This document shows, in pieces, positions 4,921 to 59,770 of a stretch of 64,000 nucleotides of DNA. The position numbers were made by a program, and so were the translations under genes. Source of the stretch: an uncultured Acidobacteriota bacterium. GTDB lineage: Bacteria > Acidobacteriota > Vicinamibacteria > Vicinamibacterales > UBA2999. The DNA lies in contig CAWAQA010000005.1 in the NCBI GenBank assembly GCA_963784065.1, positions 383,530 to 447,529 on the forward strand, read 5' to 3'. Below the pieces are notes generated by a model. That model was given only the letters and a program-made list of their open reading frames with translations, was not told the DNA's origin and ran no database searches. Position 1 is the first letter of the stretch. Each line of letters starts with the position of its first letter.

Positions 4921-5023
4921 GAAAGCGGGCAGCCGGCAGCAAGCAGCTGGCAGAACGCAACAGGCATTCGTGACTTCCGGCGTCAGCCGGAAGAACTGCC
5001 GGCCTCCAGCTGCCGGCTGCCTG
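4921..5023. repeat. Inverted heptamer array, GGCAGCN family, with internal REP palindrome
   Basis: ggcagcc ggcagca agcagct ggcagaa (4928-4955) facing aactgcc ggcctcc agctgcc ggctgcc (4994-5021); cttccggcg-tc-agccggaag at 4974-4993. Confidence 0.8.
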
Positions 5024-6342
<1,319 letters not shown>

Positions 6343-6944: not shown

Positions 6945-7071
6945 CGAAGCCGGCAGCCGGCAGCCGACAGTGGAGGTCGCTCGACACGTAACGCTCGAGG
7001 GGTCGCGCTTGTCACCCGTTGCGTCGTGACAACATCGCCTGCCCACTGCCCGCTGCCAGCTGCCCGCTGAA
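6945..7071. repeat. Inverted heptamer array, GGCAGCN family
   Basis: cgaagcc ggcagcc ggcagcc gacagtg facing gcctgcc cactgcc cgctgcc agctgcc cgctgaa. Confidence 0.8.
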
Positions 7072-8975: not shown

Positions 8976-10001
8976 ATGCGCACCCTCTTTCGACCCTTCG
9001 TTGCCGCGGCGGCGTTGGCCGCCATCGCCGTGGTGTCCATCGACGCCCAGGAGACGTTCCGGTTCCGCAGCGGCGTCGAGCTGATCAACGTCACGGCGAC
9101 GGTGACCGACGAGGAGGGCCGCTTCGTGCCGGGCCTGCGGCAGGAGGACTTCACGGTCTACGAGGACGGCGAAGAACAGCAGGTCTCGCATTTCAGCAAC
9201 GAGCGCGTGCCGGTCAGCCTCGGCATCGCGCTCGACACCAGCGGCAGCATGACGCCGGAGAAGATGTCGGCCGCCCGCGCCGCTATCGATCGGTTCATCT
9301 ACGACCTGCTCGGCCCGGACGACGAGCTGTTCTTCATGCAGTTCGCGAACCGTCCCGACATGATCCAGCAGTGGACCAGCGACCGTCAGCGAATCAGCCG
9401 CGCGGTGGGCAGCGTCGGCTCGGGGGGCGGAACGGCGATGTACGACGCGATTGCCGACGCGATTCCCGTGGCGCAGTCGGGCAAGAACCGCAAGAAGGCG
9501 CTGCTGGTGATCTCGGACGGCAACGACACCAACAGCGGCACCTCCGTCAGCGAGCTTCGACAGATGATTCGCGAGAGCGAAGTGCTCGTCTATGCGCTCG
9601 GCGTCGAAGGCACCGAGACATCGGCGCGCCGGGGTCCGACGATTCAGCTCCCGCCGATGCCAATTCCCTTTCCCATCCCGGGGCGCCGGCCACGGTCGCG
9701 AATGCCACCGCCCATCGGCGGCGGGTCGGGCGGCGGTGTGTGGTCGCGCGGCGGCGACGAACGCGTCAACGCGCAGGCGCTGCGCCAGATCACCGACGAC
9801 AGCGGCGGGCGAACCGAGATCGTACGCGGATTCCGCGACCTCGACGGCGCGACCGCGCGCATCGCCGACGAGCTGAGCAAGCAGTACTACCTTGGCTACG
9901 CGAGCGAGGGGACCAAGGACGGGCTCTGGCATGCCATCCGCGTCGAGGTCAAGGACCGTCGTTTCACCGTGCGGGCGAGGCGGGGGTACGTCGCCTCGTA
10001 G
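8976..10001 (+). CDS. VWA domain protein (VWFA-related Acidobacterial type)
   Basis: Signal peptide, FRSGVELINV, MIDAS DTSGSM, GTAMYDA, LLVISDGND, QYYLGY...VRARRGY. Confidence 0.9.
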   Translation: MRTLFRPFVAAAALAAIAVVSIDAQETFRFRSGVELINVTATVTDEEGRFVPGLRQEDFTVYEDGEEQQVSHFSNERVPVSLGIALDTSGSMTPEKMSAARAAIDRFIYDLLGPDDELFFMQFANRPDMIQQWTSDRQRISRAVGSVGSGGGTAMYDAIADAIPVAQSGKNRKKALLVISDGNDTNSGTSVSELRQMIRESEVLVYALGVEGTETSARRGPTIQLPPMPIPFPIPGRRPRSRMPPPIGGGSGGGVWSRGGDERVNAQALRQITDDSGGRTEIVRGFRDLDGATARIADELSKQYYLGYASEGTKDGLWHAIRVEVKDRRFTVRARRGYVAS

Positions 10002-10003
10002 CC

Positions 10004-10128
10004 GGCAGCGGGCAGCCGGCAGCACGCAGGGAGCGTGTGCAAGGCGACCTGCCTAAGCCGTCGTCGCTTTCCTCGTGCTCCGCCGAACAACATCCGATGC
10101 CAGCGCCAGCAGCCCGCTGCCTGCGTGC
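10004..10128. repeat. Inverted heptamer array, GGCAGCN family
   Basis: ggcagcg ggcagcc ggcagca cgcaggg directly after the VWA stop; cgctgcc tgcgtgc on the right. Confidence 0.7.
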
Positions 10129-19294: not shown

Positions 19295-20572
19295 CTACGA
19301 CTCGAACGACGGGCGACCGGTCCCGGCGCCTGAAGCCTGACGCCCGGAGCCGATATCTATTATCTGCAGGCTGAGGACGTCGGCGTTCCCGCGTTCGATC
19401 GCCGTCAGCAGCGACGCGGGCGGGTTTCCGTCGAGGCTGATGCGCGCGACGGCGGCGTCGGCGCCCTCGAAAATCACGTTCTCGGTTTCCTGGACGTTCA
19501 GGTTGCCGTTGCGGAGGTGCTCGAATACGTGCGCCAGCACGCCGGGACGATCGCGGTGGCGCACCACCAGCCGGTGCGTCGCCGGCGTCGTCTTCGCGAG
19601 GTTCACGACGTTCGGCGCCTGGCCGGTCTCCTTGTAGGCGCGAATCACGCGAACCGCTTCGTCGGCGATGGCGTCCTGCGCCTGTTCGGTTGAGGCGCCG
19701 ATGTGGTGGGTGCCATACACACCGGCGAGGTCGCCGATCGGATCGGCAAAACGCCCGGTCCCGCCCGCCGGCTCCTGCTCGAACACGTCCAGCGCGACGC
19801 GCAGCCCCCGGGTTCTGACGGCCTCGGCGAGCGCGCCGTGATCCACGATTTCGCCACGCGCGGTGTTCACCACGTACGACCCCGGCTTGAGCCGGTTGAA
19901 GATCCCCGCACCGACCAGGTGCTTCGTGTCTGGCGTCAGCGCGAGGTGCAGGCTGAGGACGTCACTGCGCGCGGCCACCTCTTCCGGCGACGGCAGCACG
20001 GTGACGTCGAGATCGCCAGGGATGGCGCGCACGGCCGCCTCACCGTCGCGAACGAAGCGCGGGCTCCAGACGACCACGTGCATGCCGAACGCGCGCGCCC
20101 GGCGCGCCACCTCCTGCCCGATGCTGCCGAACCCGATCAGCCCGAGGGTGCGGCCGTACAGGCCGCGCGCTTTCGAGTACTCGTTCTTGTTCCACCTGCC
20201 TGCGCGCAATTCCGCGACGTTGTCCGGAATACGCCGATCGAGCGCCAGGATCAGGCCGAACGTCAGCTCGGCCACCGCGATCGAGTTCTTGCCCGGACAG
20301 GTCGCAACGTAGATCCCGCGCCGCGAGGCGGCCGCCACGTCGATCGTGTTGACGCCGGCGCCGGCGCGGACGACGAGCGCCAGCCGCCCGGCGTCGAGCA
20401 TCGCCTCGCTGACCCGGGTCGAGCGGACCACGAGCACGTCGGCGCCGGTCGAGCCAATCGCCGCCGCCAGCGCGGCATCCACGAGGTCGGGCTCGTAGAT
20501 CACCTCGCAGCCGGCCGCCGCAAGGCCTTCGAGCCCAGACGTTTCGAACTTGTCCGCGACGAGTACTTTCAT
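19295..20572 (-). CDS. serA: D-3-phosphoglycerate dehydrogenase-like with C-terminal ACT domain
   Basis: RAGAGVNTID, GLIGFGSIG, VNTARG, LDVF, HHIGAST; HRDRPGVLA ACT; adjacent to serC. Confidence 0.82.
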   Translation of the reverse strand: MKVLVADKFETSGLEGLAAAGCEVIYEPDLVDAALAAAIGSTGADVLVVRSTRVSEAMLDAGRLALVVRAGAGVNTIDVAAASRRGIYVATCPGKNSIAVAELTFGLILALDRRIPDNVAELRAGRWNKNEYSKARGLYGRTLGLIGFGSIGQEVARRARAFGMHVVVWSPRFVRDGEAAVRAIPGDLDVTVLPSPEEVAARSDVLSLHLALTPDTKHLVGAGIFNRLKPGSYVVNTARGEIVDHGALAEAVRTRGLRVALDVFEQEPAGGTGRFADPIGDLAGVYGTHHIGASTEQAQDAIADEAVRVIRAYKETGQAPNVVNLAKTTPATHRLVVRHRDRPGVLAHVFEHLRNGNLNVQETENVIFEGADAAVARISLDGNPPASLLTAIERGNADVLSLQIIDIGSGRQASGAGTGRPSFES

Positions 20573-20687
20573 CGGGCTCCGGGCTTCGGGCTTCGGACTC
20601 CGGGCTTGCGGCTTCGGGCTCTGGGTCCTCGGGGCGCGACCGGTGCAGGTTCCGGCCCGGAGCCCGCAGCCTGAAGCGCGAAGCCTT
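20573..20687. repeat. Inverted heptamer array, CGGGCTY family (8 + 5 units)
   Basis: cgggctc cgggctt cgggctt cggactc cgggctt gcggctt cgggctc tgggtcc facing cggcccg gagcccg cagcctg aagcgcg aagcctt. Confidence 0.88.
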
Positions 20688-24920: not shown

Positions 24921-25026
24921 AGGCCCCGGGCCTCAGGGCCCAGGGCTCAGGCGTCTCGCAGGCCTCAGTCGCTGCCCGCTGACGCCTGGGACAGCCCTGA
25001 ATCCTGGGCCCCGGTCCCTGAGGCCT
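24921..25026. repeat. Inverted heptamer array, AGGSCTC family
   Basis: aggcccc gggcctc agggccc agggctc aggcgtc facing gacgcct...cagccct gaatcct gggcccc ggtccct gaggcct. Confidence 0.75.
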
Positions 25027-29043: not shown

Positions 29044-30286
29044 CCCTCGAGCTGTGGGCCCTGATCGCCGCGGCCGGAGTCGGCGCGGCGATCGTGGCCA
29101 TCCTCATCAGCCGCGGGCAACTGGCGGCGCTGCACGCCGATCTCGCGCAGACGCAGGAACAGCTCAGCGCGGCCCGGGCCGAGAACGCCGCTCTGGCGCG
29201 GGACAACAAATGGCTCGGCGAATCGGACCAGAAGCTGCGCGACACGTTCCAGGCCCTGGCCGCCGAGGCGCTCAAGGACAACCGCTCCTCGTTCCTCGAT
29301 CTCGCGAGGACCTCCTTCGAGCAGTATCAGCAGCCGATCTCGGAGACCCTCCGGCGCGTCGACGTCCGGCTCGGCGAGGCCGAGCGCGATCGCGTCGCCG
29401 CCTACTCGAAGCTCGCCGAACAGGTCGTGGCGCTCGGCTCGACGGCCAATACGCTGTCGCGGGCCCTTCACACCCCGTCCGTCCGGGGCCGCTGGGGAGA
29501 AATGCAGCTTCGACGCGTGGTCGAGATCGCGGGCATGCTCGAGCAGTGCGACTTCGACGAGCAGGCGGCGTTACACAGCGACAACGGCCGCCTGAGGCCG
29601 GACCTCATCGTGCACCTCCCCGGAAGAAAGCAGATCGTGGTCGACGCCAAGGCGCCGCTCGAGGCATTCCTCGACGCGCAGGAGACCCGGGACGACGACG
29701 CGCGTGCGTTGAGGCTGCAGGCGCATGCCCGACAGGTGCGCGACCACATGGACAAGCTCGGGAGCAAGGCCTACTGGGACCAGCTCGAATCCCCGGAGAT
29801 GGTCGTGCTGTTTCTCCCGGGGAAACACTCTTCAGTGCGGCGCTGCAGCACGACCTGACGCTCATCGAGCATGGCCTGCGGCAGAAGGTCCTGCTGGCGA
29901 GCCCGATCACGCTCATCGCCCTGCTCACCACCGTCGCTCACACATGGCGGCAGGAGGCGCTGACCGAGAACTACCGGGAGGTCGCGCAGCTCGGGAAGGA
30001 ATTCTACGAGCGGCTGGCGACGTTCATCGAGCATTTCGATGACGTACGCAAGAAGCTCGACGGCGCGGTGCAGGCCTACAACAAGGCGGCGGGCTCCTTC
30101 GAAACCCGAGTGCTGGTGAGCGCGCGCAGGCTCAAAGACATGGCGGTGACGACGGCCGGGGAACTGACGCCGCTGGAGCCGATCGACGCCGTCCCGCGCG
30201 TGCTGAAACAGGCCAATCTCATGGGGCTGCCTGAAACGGCGACCGTTGAGGAGGACGAGGGCGTCAACTCCCAACTCCCGATCTGA
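29040..30286 (+). CDS. rmuC: DNA recombination protein RmuC (frameshift near 29820)
   Basis: N-terminal TM, coiled coil, RGRWGEMQLRRVVE, RPDLIVHLPG, VVDAKAPL, LASPITLIALL. Confidence 0.9.
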
Positions 30287-30420
30287 GCCCCGCGCCAACG
30301 CCCAACCTGTCGTGCCTTCGTGCAACTCCCATCTGTCGTGCCTTTCGTAGAGGCCGACCTTCAGGTCGGCCTGTCGGGAGTGCGCGTGGAACGGAGTTGG
30401 GACTTGGGAGTTGGAAGCTT
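30265..30420. repeat. Inverted heptamer array, CAACTCC / GGAGTTG family, with internal GTAG REP
   Basis: caactcc caactcc (30265-30278) facing ggagttg ggacttg ggagttg (30393-30413); gtag-aggccgacct-tc-aggtcggcct at 30347-30372. Confidence 0.85.
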
Positions 30421-40575: not shown

Positions 40576-40670
40576 TCAGGCCTCAGGCCTCAGGCCTCAG
40601 GCCCCAGGGATCGCCAGGGATCCGCAGCCGGGAGGCCGCCCGGCCTTAGACCGGAGGCCCTGCAGCCTGT
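40576..40670. repeat. Heptamer array (TCAGGCC)4 with degenerate inverted partner
   Basis: Four perfect tcaggcc units at 40576-40603; ggcctta gaccgga ggccct at 40642-40661. Confidence 0.8.
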
Positions 40671-42937: not shown

Positions 42938-43794
42938 ATGTCGCTGCTCGATGCGCTGCTGACGGACTCGACAGTCATCGCCGCGGAGCTGCGGCCGCCG
43001 CGGGCGGAGCTCGACTCCGTTGAGGGCATGGACGCGTGGATCGATCTGTACCACGCGATCCGCGGGCTCGCGCGCCAGGACATCCGCGTGTTCCTCACCG
43101 ACAGCGCCGTCGGGACGCAGGAAGAGAACAACCTGCGTCACCTGGTGACGAACCTCGGACGCGACGTCCCGCGCGAGCGCGTCGTGCCGTTTCTGACGAG
43201 CAAGCACTCGCGCGAGTTCTGCCTCGCCTATGCGGAGCAGGCGTGGCAGCACGGCTTCTCGTCGCTCGTGGTGCTCGGCGGGGACAAGACGGTGGGCCGG
43301 GCACGCTGCGTGGACCACGCGTGGGAGTTGCGGAAGGCGATTCGTGACCGCGAGCCGCGGTTGGCCCTTGGCGGGTGGGCCAACCCGTACGCCGACGCCG
43401 CACCGCAGGTCGGCTTCCTCGTCGATGGGTCCTTCACGGCGGAGTACTACCTGACCCAGATCGTCAGCCACATCGACGTCGCACCCGGTAGAACGGTTCC
43501 TCGAGGAGACCCGACGCCGCGGCGCGGACCAGATACCGGGCATGTTCGGCGTCTTCTACTATCGCAGCGCCAACGCGAGGACGCTGCAGCTGCTCAGCCA
43601 GTTCCTGCCGGTCCCCGCTGCCGGGCTTACGGCGGAATTCGCGCGCCGGCGCGACACCGGTCGACGTCTGCGCCCGTACGCTGCGCGCGATGATGGACAT
43701 CGGCGTACGGCACTTCTACATCAGCAACCTTCCGCTGCTCGGCGCCCCGGCCACGCTGACCGCCATCCTCGAAAAAGTCGGCGTGACGGCATAG
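42938..43794 (+). CDS. Divergent methylenetetrahydrofolate-reductase-like TIM-barrel protein (frameshifted)
   Basis: AELRPP, FLTD, LVVLGGD, GGWANP, YYLTQ, HFYISN correspond to MetF-family motifs. Confidence 0.55.
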
Positions 43795-43858
43795 CTGCAC
43801 CCCCTGGCCGCCAGGACCAGGTTGGGGAGTGGGAGTTGATATTGCAACCGCCGTACGC

Positions 43859-44642
43859 ATGAGAACGCGTGCGTCCATCGACGGCCATCCGATTCATCCC
43901 ATGCTCATCCCTTACCCGTTTGCGTTCCTGACGGGCGGGTGGGGCTTTGGCGTGGCGGCGGCCATCACCGGCAACAAGGACCTGGCGACCGTCGCGCGCT
44001 ACCTCGTCCCCACCGGGGTGGCGGCCGGCCTTCTCGCCGCCGTCCCCGGCATCGTGGACTACGTCGAGAGCGTTCCGCCCGACAGCTCAGCCAAAGAACG
44101 GGCGCGCACGCACGGACTGCTCAACACCGCCGCGCTCGCGCTGTTCACGGCGGGATGGTGGATCAGCCGGCGGTCGCGCCGCACCGCCGCACCGTTGCTG
44201 CTGCAAGGACTGGGCACCGCGGCGATGTCCACCGCGGCGTGGATGGGCGGCGTCCTGGTGAACCGCAACCAGATCGGCGTGGACCACCGCTACGCGAACG
44301 CGGGCAAGTGGCAGGAGGAACGCCGAGCGCCGGCGAGCAGCCGCGCGCTCGCGTTTGCCGCGGCGCCGCTGGACGTGGACCAGATGAAGCTGGTTCACGT
44401 GGACGGCGCGCGCATTGCCGTCGGCGCGCACGGAGGAGGGCTACGCCGCCTTCAGCGATCGCTGCACGCACCGCGGCGGACCGCTCTCCGACGGCGTGCT
44501 GATCTGCGGGACCGTGCAGTGTCCGTGGCACGGCTCCCAGTTCGACGTGCACACAGGTGACGTGAAGTGCGGGCCGGCGGAGAAGCCGATCGAGACCTAC
44601 GACATCGACAAGGCGTCGGGCGAGATCAAGCGGCCGGCCTAG
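43859..44642 (+). CDS. DUF2231 membrane domain fused to a Rieske [2Fe-2S] domain (frameshift near 44420)
   Basis: GHPIHPMLIPYP, AVPGIVD, HGLLN, WMGG; CTHRGGPL and CPWHGSQFD Rieske motifs. Confidence 0.88.
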
Positions 44643-44644
44643 AG

Positions 44645-44680
44645 CAACTCCCAACCGCCAACTCAACGCCAACCCCAACC
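44645..44680. repeat. Left arm CAACTCC-family array flanking the four-helix-bundle gene
   Basis: caactcc caaccgc caactca acgc caacccc aacc. Confidence 0.8.
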
Positions 44681-44739
44681 GTCGGGCGGCTCGCGATCCG
44701 CCGTGTCTTGTCCGGCATGGTACGGGCACTGCTTGTCGT

Positions 44740-45119
44740 ATGGACGGCCACCACGACTGGCAGCCGAAGAAACCGTACGACCTTCGCGAGCGACTCTTCG
44801 AGTTCGGATGTCTCATCGTCCGCGTTGTGCAGTATCTGCAACTCGGGGACCGGTGGCATCCGCTCTTTCGTACCAGTTGTTGCGCTGCGGCACGTCGGCG
44901 GGCGCGAACTACGAGGAGGCGGACGACGGGTCGAGCGACCGCGATACGTTGGCGAAGAGGAAGATCGCGTTGCGGGAAGTGAAGGAGACGCGCTTTCGGT
45001 TGCGAATTCTACGACACTGCAACCTGCTGACGCCCGCGCAGGACCCGGTCATTGATGAAGCCGACGAACTGGTACGAATTCTCGCAACACTGATACACAG
45101 CAGTCCGGCCGGCCGCTGA
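44740..45119 (+). CDS. Four-helix-bundle protein (23S rRNA intervening-sequence protein / Avd-like family); frameshift near 44840
   Basis: YDLRERLFEFG...QLLRCGTSAGANYEEA...IALREVKETRFRL...EADELVRILA matches the family pattern QLxRSxTSIGANxxEA...ALxExxET. Confidence 0.85.
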
Positions 45120-45172
45120 AACCGCGGTGCGGGCTCCGGCCCGAACGCCAGCACACCGCTTCGAGGCTATCC

Positions 45173-45218
45173 GTTGGGAGTTGGCGCAGAGTGTAAGGTT
45201 GGGAATTGGAAGTTGAAC
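45173..45218. repeat. Right arm GTTGGGA-family array flanking the four-helix-bundle gene
   Basis: gttggga gttggcg ... gttggga attggaa gttgaac; gttgggagttg is the exact reverse complement of 44645-44655. Confidence 0.8.
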
Positions 45219-45228
45219 CTTCGAGAAC

Positions 45229-45970
45229 CTACTTCACGTGCCTGCCGCCATCGACGCGGATCGTTTCGCCGGTGATGAAGTCGTTGTCGATGAGCGCGAT
45301 GACGGCCTTGGCGATCTCGGGCTCACCGCCCCAGCGGCCGAGCGGGGTTGTGCGCTCGACGGCGGCGAACTGCTCGTCGGAGGTCCCGTCGGGCGCGACG
45401 ATCGGACCGGGCGCGATGGCGTTGACGAGAATCTGATCGGCCGCCAGCTCCAGCGCCAGGCCTTCGGTCAAGGCGACGACCGCCCCTTTCGCCACGTAGT
45501 AGGTCAGGAACCCTGGATAGCGCGGGCGGCCGCTGCGCGCGATCCAGTCGGAGAAGTTGATGATCCGGCCGCCGCGAAGCCGGCGCATATGCGGGACGGC
45601 GGCCCGGGCGCAGAGCCACGCCGCGCGCAGATCAACAGCCATCTGGTCTTCCCAGTCGTTGAGCGTGACCTCCTCGAAGGGCGTGTGACTGTAGATCGAC
45701 GCCATGTTCACGAGCACGTCGAGGCGGCCGAGCGCCGCCACCGTCTCGTCCACGACCCCCTCACAGGCATCGGGCTCCTTCAGGTCGGCTCGCAGCACTG
45801 TCAGCGCGCCGGCCGAGACCGCGTACCGTCTCGGCCACGTCCTCCGCCTCCGCCCGAGAGCGCCGATAGACCAGCGCGACGTCCATGCCCCTGCGCGCCA
45901 ACTCCGTCGCCACGACGGCGCCGATGCGTTTGCCGCCGGTGATGAGCGCAACGCGGCCAGCCAGCTCCAT
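45229..45970 (-). CDS. SDR family oxidoreductase (pteridine reductase-like); frameshifted
   Basis: ITGGKRIG, LVNMAS, YYVAK (YxxxK), VNAIAPG, ITGETIRVDGG. Confidence 0.88.
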
Positions 45971-47424: not shown

Positions 47425-47492
47425 CCACAGAGACGCAGAGGCACAGAGCCCACTCCCTGGGTTCTCTTCTCTGTGTCTCTGTGGCTCTGTGG
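47425..47492. repeat. Inverted octamer array, CACAGAGR / YCTCTGTG family
   Basis: ccacagagacgcagaggcacagag pairs 21/24 with ctctgtgtctctgtggctctgtgg. Confidence 0.85.
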
Positions 47493-59621: not shown

Positions 59622-59770
59622 ATCAACTCCCGACGCCCAATCGAAACCTTGCGCCAGGACCCAACCTGTTGGCTTCGCTCGCAGCAGCCGGTGAATGTCA
59701 GAAAACGTGCGGCGCGAGCCGCGCGTCAGATTGGACGCGTGCAGGAGCGGATTCGGGGTCGGGTGTTGAT
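59622..59770. repeat. CAACTCC-family element with terminal inverted repeats filling a convergent gap
   Basis: atcaactcccgacgcccaatc (59622-59642) vs gattcggggtcgggtgttgat (59750-59770), 18/21 complementary. Confidence 0.72.

Follow-up and report, generated by a model that had tools for sequence, protein, structure and literature searches.

The nearest precedent for the element described here is the set of heptameric repeats in the 23S rRNA intervening sequence (IVS) of Coxiella. The sections of PMC4990558 that treat this IVS describe an open reading frame (ORF) for S23p, a member of the 23S_rRNA_IVP family (hereafter IVP), a 28-bp terminal stem and three to four GACAGAT heptamers before the ORF, with RNase III cleaving at the first repeat. 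The same sections present X. campestris S23p as a homopentameric toroid (PMC4990558), and PDB entries 2gsc and 2rld hold five chains each. We analysed a 64-kb window (G000:C5:383530–447529, the whole stretch of DNA to which window coordinates refer) from the genome of an uncultured Acidobacteriota bacterium (5.54 Mb, 67% G+C, 10 contigs, 81% complete), in which an IVP gene stands between two protein-coding genes and is enclosed by inverted arrays of heptamers. The best explanation of this locus, and one that we consider somewhat probable, is a discrete insertion cassette that has the build of an ORF-bearing 23S rRNA IVS but lies outside rRNA.

Like the 23S rRNA IVSs of Coxiella and Leptospira, the window cassette joins a gene of the same protein family to stem-closing terminal inverted repeats and places heptamers just before the ORF, which in both cases runs in sense with the host transcript. 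The IVSs measure 428–444 nt, compared with 586 nt for the cassette and about 480 nt for typical IVP loci with such arms. Unlike an IVS, the cassette sits 2 nt behind the stop codon of a protein gene, between two protein genes, and not in rRNA. The single 23S match of the genome (C5:337291–340264) lies about 43 kb before the window and carries no large insertion, in agreement with the initial annotation, which had noted that no rRNA falls in the window. None of the 114 IVP loci examined lies inside a 23S gene, and no large insertions were found in the 23S genes of five genomes.

The inserted unit occupies 44643–45228 on the plus strand, its limits being set by comparison with an empty site in the relative G017. 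It follows the stop codon (TAG, 44640–44642) of a gene combining DUF2231 and Rieske domains and precedes the stop codon (45229–45231, minus strand) of a convergent short-chain dehydrogenase (SDR) gene. By direct reading, the 5′ array (44645–44680; about five CAACTCC-type heptamers, caactcc caaccgc caactca acgccaa ccccaacc) begins 2 nt after the first of these stops and the 3′ array (45173–45218; GTTGGGA/GGAGTTG-type heptamers broken by 11 nt, gttggga gttggcg ... ggttggga attggaa gttgaacc) ends 10 nt before the second, exactly where the arrays had been placed from the sequence at the outset. The 5′ arm was also returned as a TRF row and is paired in the RNA minimum-free-energy fold. As had been claimed, the 11-mers at 44645–44655 and 45173–45183 are exact reverse complements, with a one-mismatch copy of the latter at 45198–45208; taken over their full length the arms are imperfect, with 27 of 36 aligned positions complementary. 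Spacers of 59 nt and 53 nt separate the IVP gene from the 5′ and 3′ arms, respectively. In the build that we propose, some five heptamers make up the 5′ array and are followed, after a short spacer, by an IVP gene of about 125 codons and, after a second short spacer, by the inverted array. Allowing up to one mismatch, the arm 11-mer occurs nine times in the window (located at 30265–30413, 44645, 45173, 45198 and 59624) against an expectation of 0.39, and none of 100 shuffled sequences reached nine.

The arms come and go together with the rest of this unit. In G017 the genes stand in the order seen in the window (peptidase, folate-reductase-like gene, DUF2231-Rieske gene at 68% identity and convergent SDR gene), and tblastx confirmed the homology of the window's flanks to the G017 junction (L183). 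At that orthologous junction the Rieske and SDR stop codons lie 2 nt apart, with neither arms, hairpin nor IVP gene between them. The comparison of empty and filled junctions that the initial annotation had proposed thus finds an empty site, so the gene is not syntenically fixed. Inspection by eye of the junctions against the G017 site revealed no target-site duplication. The closest protein homologues, in G024 (71% identity) and G023 (79%), have arms with CAACTCC on the 5′ side and GGGAGTTG on the 3′ side, as in the cassette, and their flanks share no similarity with those of the window, which places them at other loci. Homologues at 50–57% identity carry other units (CAATGCT, AAGGCAA and CAATTCA), and remoter ones differ again. 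The CAACTCC heptamer is therefore retained at a divergence where the synonymous sites of the ORF are saturated; complementarity alone would not require such retention. The view of the locus as the 'loaded' form of a repeat-bounded cassette fits both the homologues that keep their arms at unrelated loci and the roughly 20 gene-less CAACTCC elements of the genome.

The inverted-array build is general for the IVP gene family across phyla. We scored the flanks of each locus by local alignment of the 400 nt upstream with the reverse complement of the 400 nt downstream and set a threshold of 16 from a cross-locus control in the relatives set (95th percentile 16.0, 99th percentile 24.3, n = 650). In 40 relatives from the same order, 22 of 29 IVP loci exceeded this threshold, three loci having a truncated flank. 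In public genomes of many phyla, among them Acidobacteriota, Planctomycetota, Chloroflexota, Firmicutes, Proteobacteria, Cyanobacteria, Actinobacteria, Verrucomicrobia, Lentisphaerae and Bacteroidota, together with one genome of the candidate phyla radiation (CPR), 54 of 77 did so and 25 scored above 24. By comparison, 24 of 610 cross-locus pairs from this many-phyla set exceeded 16, and cold-shock loci in the 41 genomes of the window's order never did (0 of 28; median score 10). The test of IVP flanks against control genes, which had been put forward as a check on the original proposal, comes out in its favour, inverted period-7 arrays being far commoner beside IVP genes. Among arrays scoring at least 12 at 110 IVP loci, 60 of the 65 that lie upstream and 58 of the 62 that lie downstream have period 7. 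The arms have a median length of 4.4–4.6 units, and both upstream and downstream they stop at a median distance of 48 nt from the Pfam match. A search of 14 cassette loci against Rfam returned no family; a lone match to a microRNA model (33 bits, gathering cut-off 63) was taken as chance.

The arm units share a sequence as well as a period. Their consensus is CAGTNGY, with the A present in 109, the G in 125 and the T in 98 of 139 units, and the unit logo reaches 4.29 bits compared with a mean of 2.38 and a maximum of 2.74 in 200 runs of a rotation-fitted null. The 5′ arms have a marked polarity (AGT in 35 of 70, ACT in 2 of 70), and the 3′ arms are their mirror image. Because a sequence of the form X-loop-rc(X), where rc denotes the reverse complement, reads alike on both strands, this polarity is a property of the element and not of the gene strand. 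Protein identity and unit distance are negatively correlated (Spearman −0.23; 0 of 500 permutations as negative), and among 19 pairs with at least 70% protein identity the unit agrees within one change in 74%. The arm unit travels with the IVP gene.

The family assignment of the window gene (44740–45119, plus strand) stood up to a profile search, with matches in the 3′ frame to PF05635 (40.4 bits, cut-off 33.8, E = 3.7e-10, profile positions 30–105) and to TIGR02436 (56.8 bits, cut-off 24, E = 2.3e-15). The gene had been described as a four-helix-bundle gene of about 125 aa; the family part of that description holds, but the single open frame does not, as helix 1 is read in the ORF at 44740–44982 and helices 2–4 in the ORF at 44703–45119, with the switch near 44839–44848. 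On one reading the frameshift is real and the locus is a functionless, decaying pseudogene remnant beside chance repeats; the split itself, the arm score below the threshold and the apparent disruption of the G023 homologue by a short duplication speak for it. We regard this reading as highly improbable. A 173-nt soil-metagenome contig (run X1), which spans 44727–44898 and differs at three other letters, has one extra A behind 44839 that brings both gene parts into one frame, and the G024 and G023 orthologues read through at the frame-switch point. Two neighbouring genes appear split over two frames as well, namely the Rieske gene and a third neighbour at 42938–43862. In G017 the Rieske gene is read as one frame of 395 aa, and at 44423 a contig from run X3 is 1 nt shorter, so indel errors in the assembly are the likely cause. 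To judge from these sequences, the IVP gene is probably intact in nature and its split probably an assembly error. The nine occurrences of the arm 11-mer speak against chance repeats. In comparisons of the cassette gene with its two nearest homologues, pN (0.18 and 0.15) is far below pS (0.93 and 0.82), which indicates purifying selection on the IVP protein; the two alignment columns that are invariant over 19 sequences, the acidic E48 and E71, are kept in the window's own row. Among contigs of runs X1, X2, X3 and X20, none spans the joint between arm and gene, and the one RNA run compared has no coverage of the cassette.

Five PF05635 matches are present in the window's genome (C1:356252, C8:75664, C5:463223, C5:428391 and C4:202974), and all five genes are flanked by inverted tandem arrays, each with a different unit: CGGGCTN/GCCCGAA, a 23-mer, a CAGGGGT-like unit, CAACTCC in the window cassette and GAAGTGGAA. 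Three of the five score above 16 (27, 111 and 29.5) and two below it (14.5 for the window cassette and 11.5 for L003). At C8:75250–76350 (L002), the 23-nt unit TGTCGGTGCAATCCCACTTCGCT and its complement are repeated about seven times on each side of an IVP gene; these are the strongest arms seen, with the score of 111, and a related array occurs at C9:374531. The CAACTCC family itself numbers about 20 loci in the genome, built as nested-hairpin units of about 100–113 nt with CAACTCC always on the 5′ side, and the window cassette is its sole member with a gene. Tandem CAACTCC multimers of four to five head-to-tail copies occupy C3:724760–725330 and C10:46540–46960. Within the window, the gene-less copies and the one-sided copy that the initial annotation had listed are all present. 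The member at 30265–30420 has CAACTCC on its 5′ side, GGAGTTG on its 3′ side and an inner G+C-rich hairpin, and by eye it has in common with the cassette an inner boundary motif, CCAACC(T)GTCG. The member at 59622–59770 is degenerate, with inverted ends of about 23 nt, and the one-sided GGAGTTG-type array of two to three units reads as 43820–43841.

Arrays of this kind are abundant in the genome, and it is worth asking whether they are ordinary intergenic hairpins, acting as terminators or insulators and arising by slippage, in which IVP genes merely land or survive with no functional tie. The excess of period 7 fits such an origin (483 tandem arrays, as against 217 with period 6, 149 with period 8 and 21 with period 10), as do the 89–91 tight gene-less inverted pairs among the period-7 arrays, which often stand right behind stop codons (median 13 nt where the 3′ end of a gene faces the hairpin). 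Cyanobacterial arrays occur without IVP genes, and inverted pairs of wide spacing also surround other genes. We nevertheless consider this account improbable. The empty G017 site has no hairpin, the arms accompany the gene to unrelated loci, protein and unit covary, and no cold-shock locus passes the flank threshold. The tight hairpins also show no preference for convergent gene pairs, where 15 of 91 are found compared with 19% of all neighbour pairs.

Inverted pairs with gaps of 600–2000 nt were examined as further cassettes and rejected: the genes inside them are ordinary ones (ribosomal L16 and L6/S8, glyoxalase, SDR, ADH, CDP-alcohol transferase and Kelch), and the pairs amount to neighbouring intergenic arrays. 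At C2:271000–281000 (L212, L221), heptamer arrays occupy short spacers among the genes for ribosomal proteins L16, S8 and L6 and would therefore belong to highly expressed polycistronic RNA. At C3:782400–783400 (L009), inverted arrays of CCCTGAT and TCAGGA type enclose a 281-aa ORF that matches nothing in Pfam or NCBIfam.

A second small-protein family shows a comparable arrangement with a repeat of its own. For GxxExxY genes (TIGR04256, PD-(D/E)XK fold) in the same genomes, 23 of 29 loci exceed the flank threshold of 16, and their arrays scoring at least 12 have a period of 8–9 in 17 of 17 cases, with the unit CACRGAGR(N). A locus of this kind lies at C1:331700–332250 (L006/L051) in the window's genome, and the window itself contains, at 47426–47492, a tight gene-less inverted pair of period 8 with the GxxExxY-type repeat (CACAGAGA / CTCTGTGG). 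A third family is represented at C9:169900–170750 (L008), where inverted arrays of palindromes resembling repetitive extragenic palindromic (REP) sequences flank the gene for a true REP-associated tyrosine transposase (RAYT; NF047646, 98 bits); this is a classical REPIN-RAYT unit in the genome of the cassette. Period and motif thus vary by gene family within the same genomes, and the finding of three unrelated small-protein families, each with its own type of repeat, argues against chance landing in generic hairpins.

The RAYT locus also illustrates an alternative to the IVS-like cassette, in which the arrays are the replicating entity, the IVP protein is a cognate DNA-level partner that mobilizes or homogenizes them, and RNA pairing is a by-product; GxxExxY would do likewise for CACRGAGR arrays. 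We rate this alternative as rather unlikely, although a good deal of evidence is consistent with it. As in REPIN-RAYT systems, and as at L008 itself, a single-copy gene is flanked by a repeat in inverted orientation, other copies of which are scattered gene-less through the genome, each gene family has its own repeat type, and gene and repeat co-occur in the window's order. The symmetry of the IVP arms is that of terminal inverted repeats, the arm unit is retained despite saturated synonymous sites, and the gene-less CAACTCC elements include tandem multimers. There are also differences: the protein is a four-helix bundle that matches only PF05635/TIGR02436 and not an HUH/Y1 transposase, the arms consist of tandem 7-nt units as opposed to a 20–30-nt palindrome, and the co-occurrence fails in cyanobacteria. 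The IVP protein lacks any catalytic motif of the kinds known to break or join DNA, and no target-site duplication is visible by eye at the junctions.

The co-occurrence itself was measured by counting AGT at period 7 in four successive units, with a reversed control. In the window's order, all 15 IVP-negative genomes have at most 8 period-7 hits (median 0), whereas more than 8, and up to 1376, were counted in 24 of the 26 that are IVP-positive. For GxxExxY, a count of CACRRAG in three successive units across 41 genomes found both gene and arrays in 14 genomes (9–190 hits each), the gene only in 3, arrays only in 4 and neither in 20. Loci from two of the gene-only genomes (G017 and G032) have variant units; among the arrays-only genomes, one has a single hit and three are 85–86% complete. 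Because the compared genomes are closely related and single arrays can give several overlapping hits, these counts overstate independence; this and the incompleteness of the arrays-only genomes count against a REPIN/RAYT-like system. Taking the order-level and cyanobacterial sets together, 54 of 58 IVP-positive genomes have such arrays: IVP genes occur almost only where arrays exist, and arrays occur without need for a detectable IVP gene. The interpretation given in the initial annotation is supported in part; its suggestion that the gene may be the trans-acting partner or cargo of the dispersed arrays is weakened, in its partner half, by the cyanobacterial genomes considered below.

Returning to the IVS-like cassette, we propose that it is transcribed and processed with its upstream host gene. 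The cassette arms pair in the RNA minimum-free-energy fold and close a structure around the ORF. A simple sigma-70-like consensus scan, which may not fit this organism, found no promoter-like site in 44400–45450. Across loci, the IVP gene and the gene upstream of it point the same way in 62 of 75 clear cases; a crude gene call puts the share of such co-oriented pairs among adjacent genes of the window's own genome at 62%. Since the cassette begins 2 nt behind the stop codon of a co-oriented gene and no sigma-70-like promoter was found, it is probably transcribed by read-through from that gene. In the transcript the arms would pair into a duplex of about 30–36 bp that RNase III could cut, as in rRNA IVSs, for which such cutting has been shown and from which we infer it here by analogy. 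Such cleavage would release the message for the IVP protein, and the host message would then end in a stem. The course that we hold to be the most likely, with read-through, pairing of the arms and excision by RNase III, is favoured because the build is the same as that of the rRNA elements, no promoter was found, the genes are co-oriented and the fold is closed by the arms. More speculatively, the IVP protein, a homopentameric ring in its solved relative, may bind the heptamer repeats, of which the arms typically hold four to five units, and through this binding may help to keep or spread the repeat family. That about five heptamers might be bound by a five-membered ring is an attractive but speculative idea.

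Several observations weigh against this reading. The fold has a z-score of only −2.08 (20 shuffles), and a wobble test found no excess of G·U-compatible arm mismatches on the sense strand (141 sense versus 149 antisense), so that the complementarity does not have to be maintained in RNA. The expectation that the arms can pair around the ORF agrees with the predicted fold. The lack of G·U bias, which gives the mismatches no strand preference and so also suits a DNA-level system, together with conservation of the unit sequence itself, suggests that RNA pairing is perhaps not the selected function and that the repeat is recognized at the DNA or protein level. The cassette's own arms are also weak, with a flank score of 14.5, just below the threshold set at the 95th percentile of the control, and its polarity is the reverse of the usual one and rare in the set: on the 5′ side stands CAACTCC, which is complementary to the consensus in its GAGTTGG form. 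No nuclease or recombinase motif was recognized in the IVP protein. In the 81%-complete assembly, no IVP gene accompanies the genome's largest heptamer families, those of CAGCNGG and CGGTCTN type. Among 41 cyanobacterial genomes, 8 of 9 that are IVP-negative hold 49–629 period-7 hits, and 2 of 32 that are IVP-positive hold at most 2, so the arrays are not dependent on the IVP protein there, a point that also counts against a REPIN/RAYT-like partnership. Finally, Coxiella S23p is argued, in the sections of PMC4990558 concerned with it, to be not made and decaying.

Other mobile and repeat systems resemble the cassette in part. Transposable elements of the miniature inverted-repeat type (MITEs) and their autonomous parents likewise comprise gene-bearing and short gene-less elements with common inverted ends and presence/absence polymorphism; unlike them, the 586-nt unit contains no transposase ORF, no target-site duplication was seen, and its ends are tandem short repeats whose unit varies between copies. 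Avd of diversity-generating retroelements (DGRs) belongs to a related four-helix-bundle family and is described as a nucleic-acid-binding pentamer that partners a reverse transcriptase. We considered and rejected a DGR here: there is no reverse transcriptase, template or variable repeat nearby, and all five IVP genes are distant from the sole reverse transcriptase match of the genome (RVT_1), which lies at C5:1890–2526 and is read in two adjoining pieces. That match is about 380 kb from the window, in keeping with the earlier remark that the window holds no reverse transcriptase.

Heptanucleotide repeats form the remaining point of comparison. The short tandemly repeated repetitive (STRR) sequences of the cyanobacteria Calothrix and Nostoc are heptanucleotide tandem repeats, and their units CCCCAGT and CAACAGT fit CAGTNNN. 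In Xanthomonas, GGGAATC heptamers form 70–75 convergent inverted pairs, and Beggiatoaceae carry TAACTGA heptamers; the parts of these reports that deal with the repeats leave their function open (PMC4692102, PMC4679880). TAACTGA is the complement of the CAGTTAT-type unit found among IVP arms. The IVP arms share with all three the character of intergenic period-7 arrays, often in convergent inverted pairs, but unlike them bracket one gene family, whereas the relevant parts of the Xanthomonas and Beggiatoaceae papers report no associated gene. The 23S_rRNA_IVP family is called functionally uncharacterized in the pertinent passage of a paper on CPR rRNA insertions (PMC11270868). A literature search, with subscription journals outside its reach, found no paper that ties the IVP or GxxExxY families to flanking repeat arrays in general.

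The genes beside the cassette have clear assignments. The upstream host gene (43829–44642, plus strand) encodes a DUF2231 and a Rieske domain (PF09990, PF00355) and, as noted, is divided between two frames; the downstream host gene (45229–45951, minus strand) is the convergent SDR (PF13561, E = 1.8e-40). The window holds more heptamer arrays, at 4924–5025, 6948–7069, 10000–10029, 20572–20633, 24922–24951 and 40576–40608, among them tight inverted pairs (AGCAGGC/CTGCCGG and AGCCGGC/CTGCCCG) and one-sided runs (TCGGGCT, 7 copies; TCAGGCC, 4.7 copies).

Many genomes encode PF05635/TIGR02436 proteins, often more than one, with six genes in the Granulicella genome of locus L173, and structures have been solved; yet the proteins have no known function and are named after rare copies in 23S genes. 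Reports of heptanucleotide tandem repeats in bacterial genomes go back decades, and the accounts cited above still call their role open in the parts that address it. We find the IVP family between inverted heptamer arrays in at least 10 phyla and GxxExxY, a second orphan family, between 8–9-nt arrays of its own; in one bacterial order, dispersed arrays occur almost only where the gene is present. A broader generalization, which we offer tentatively and regard as possible but doubtful, is that IVP and GxxExxY proteins are sequence-specific partners of short-tandem-repeat hairpins (CAGTNGY heptamers and CACRGAGR 8–9-mers, respectively). They would then constitute widespread, transposase-free systems resembling REPIN-RAYT that account for much of the bacterial heptanucleotide excess, and rRNA IVSs would be the few copies that landed in rRNA. 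The association described here joins an uncharacterized protein family to an unexplained excess of heptamers and recasts the rRNA IVSs as special cases of a general cassette.

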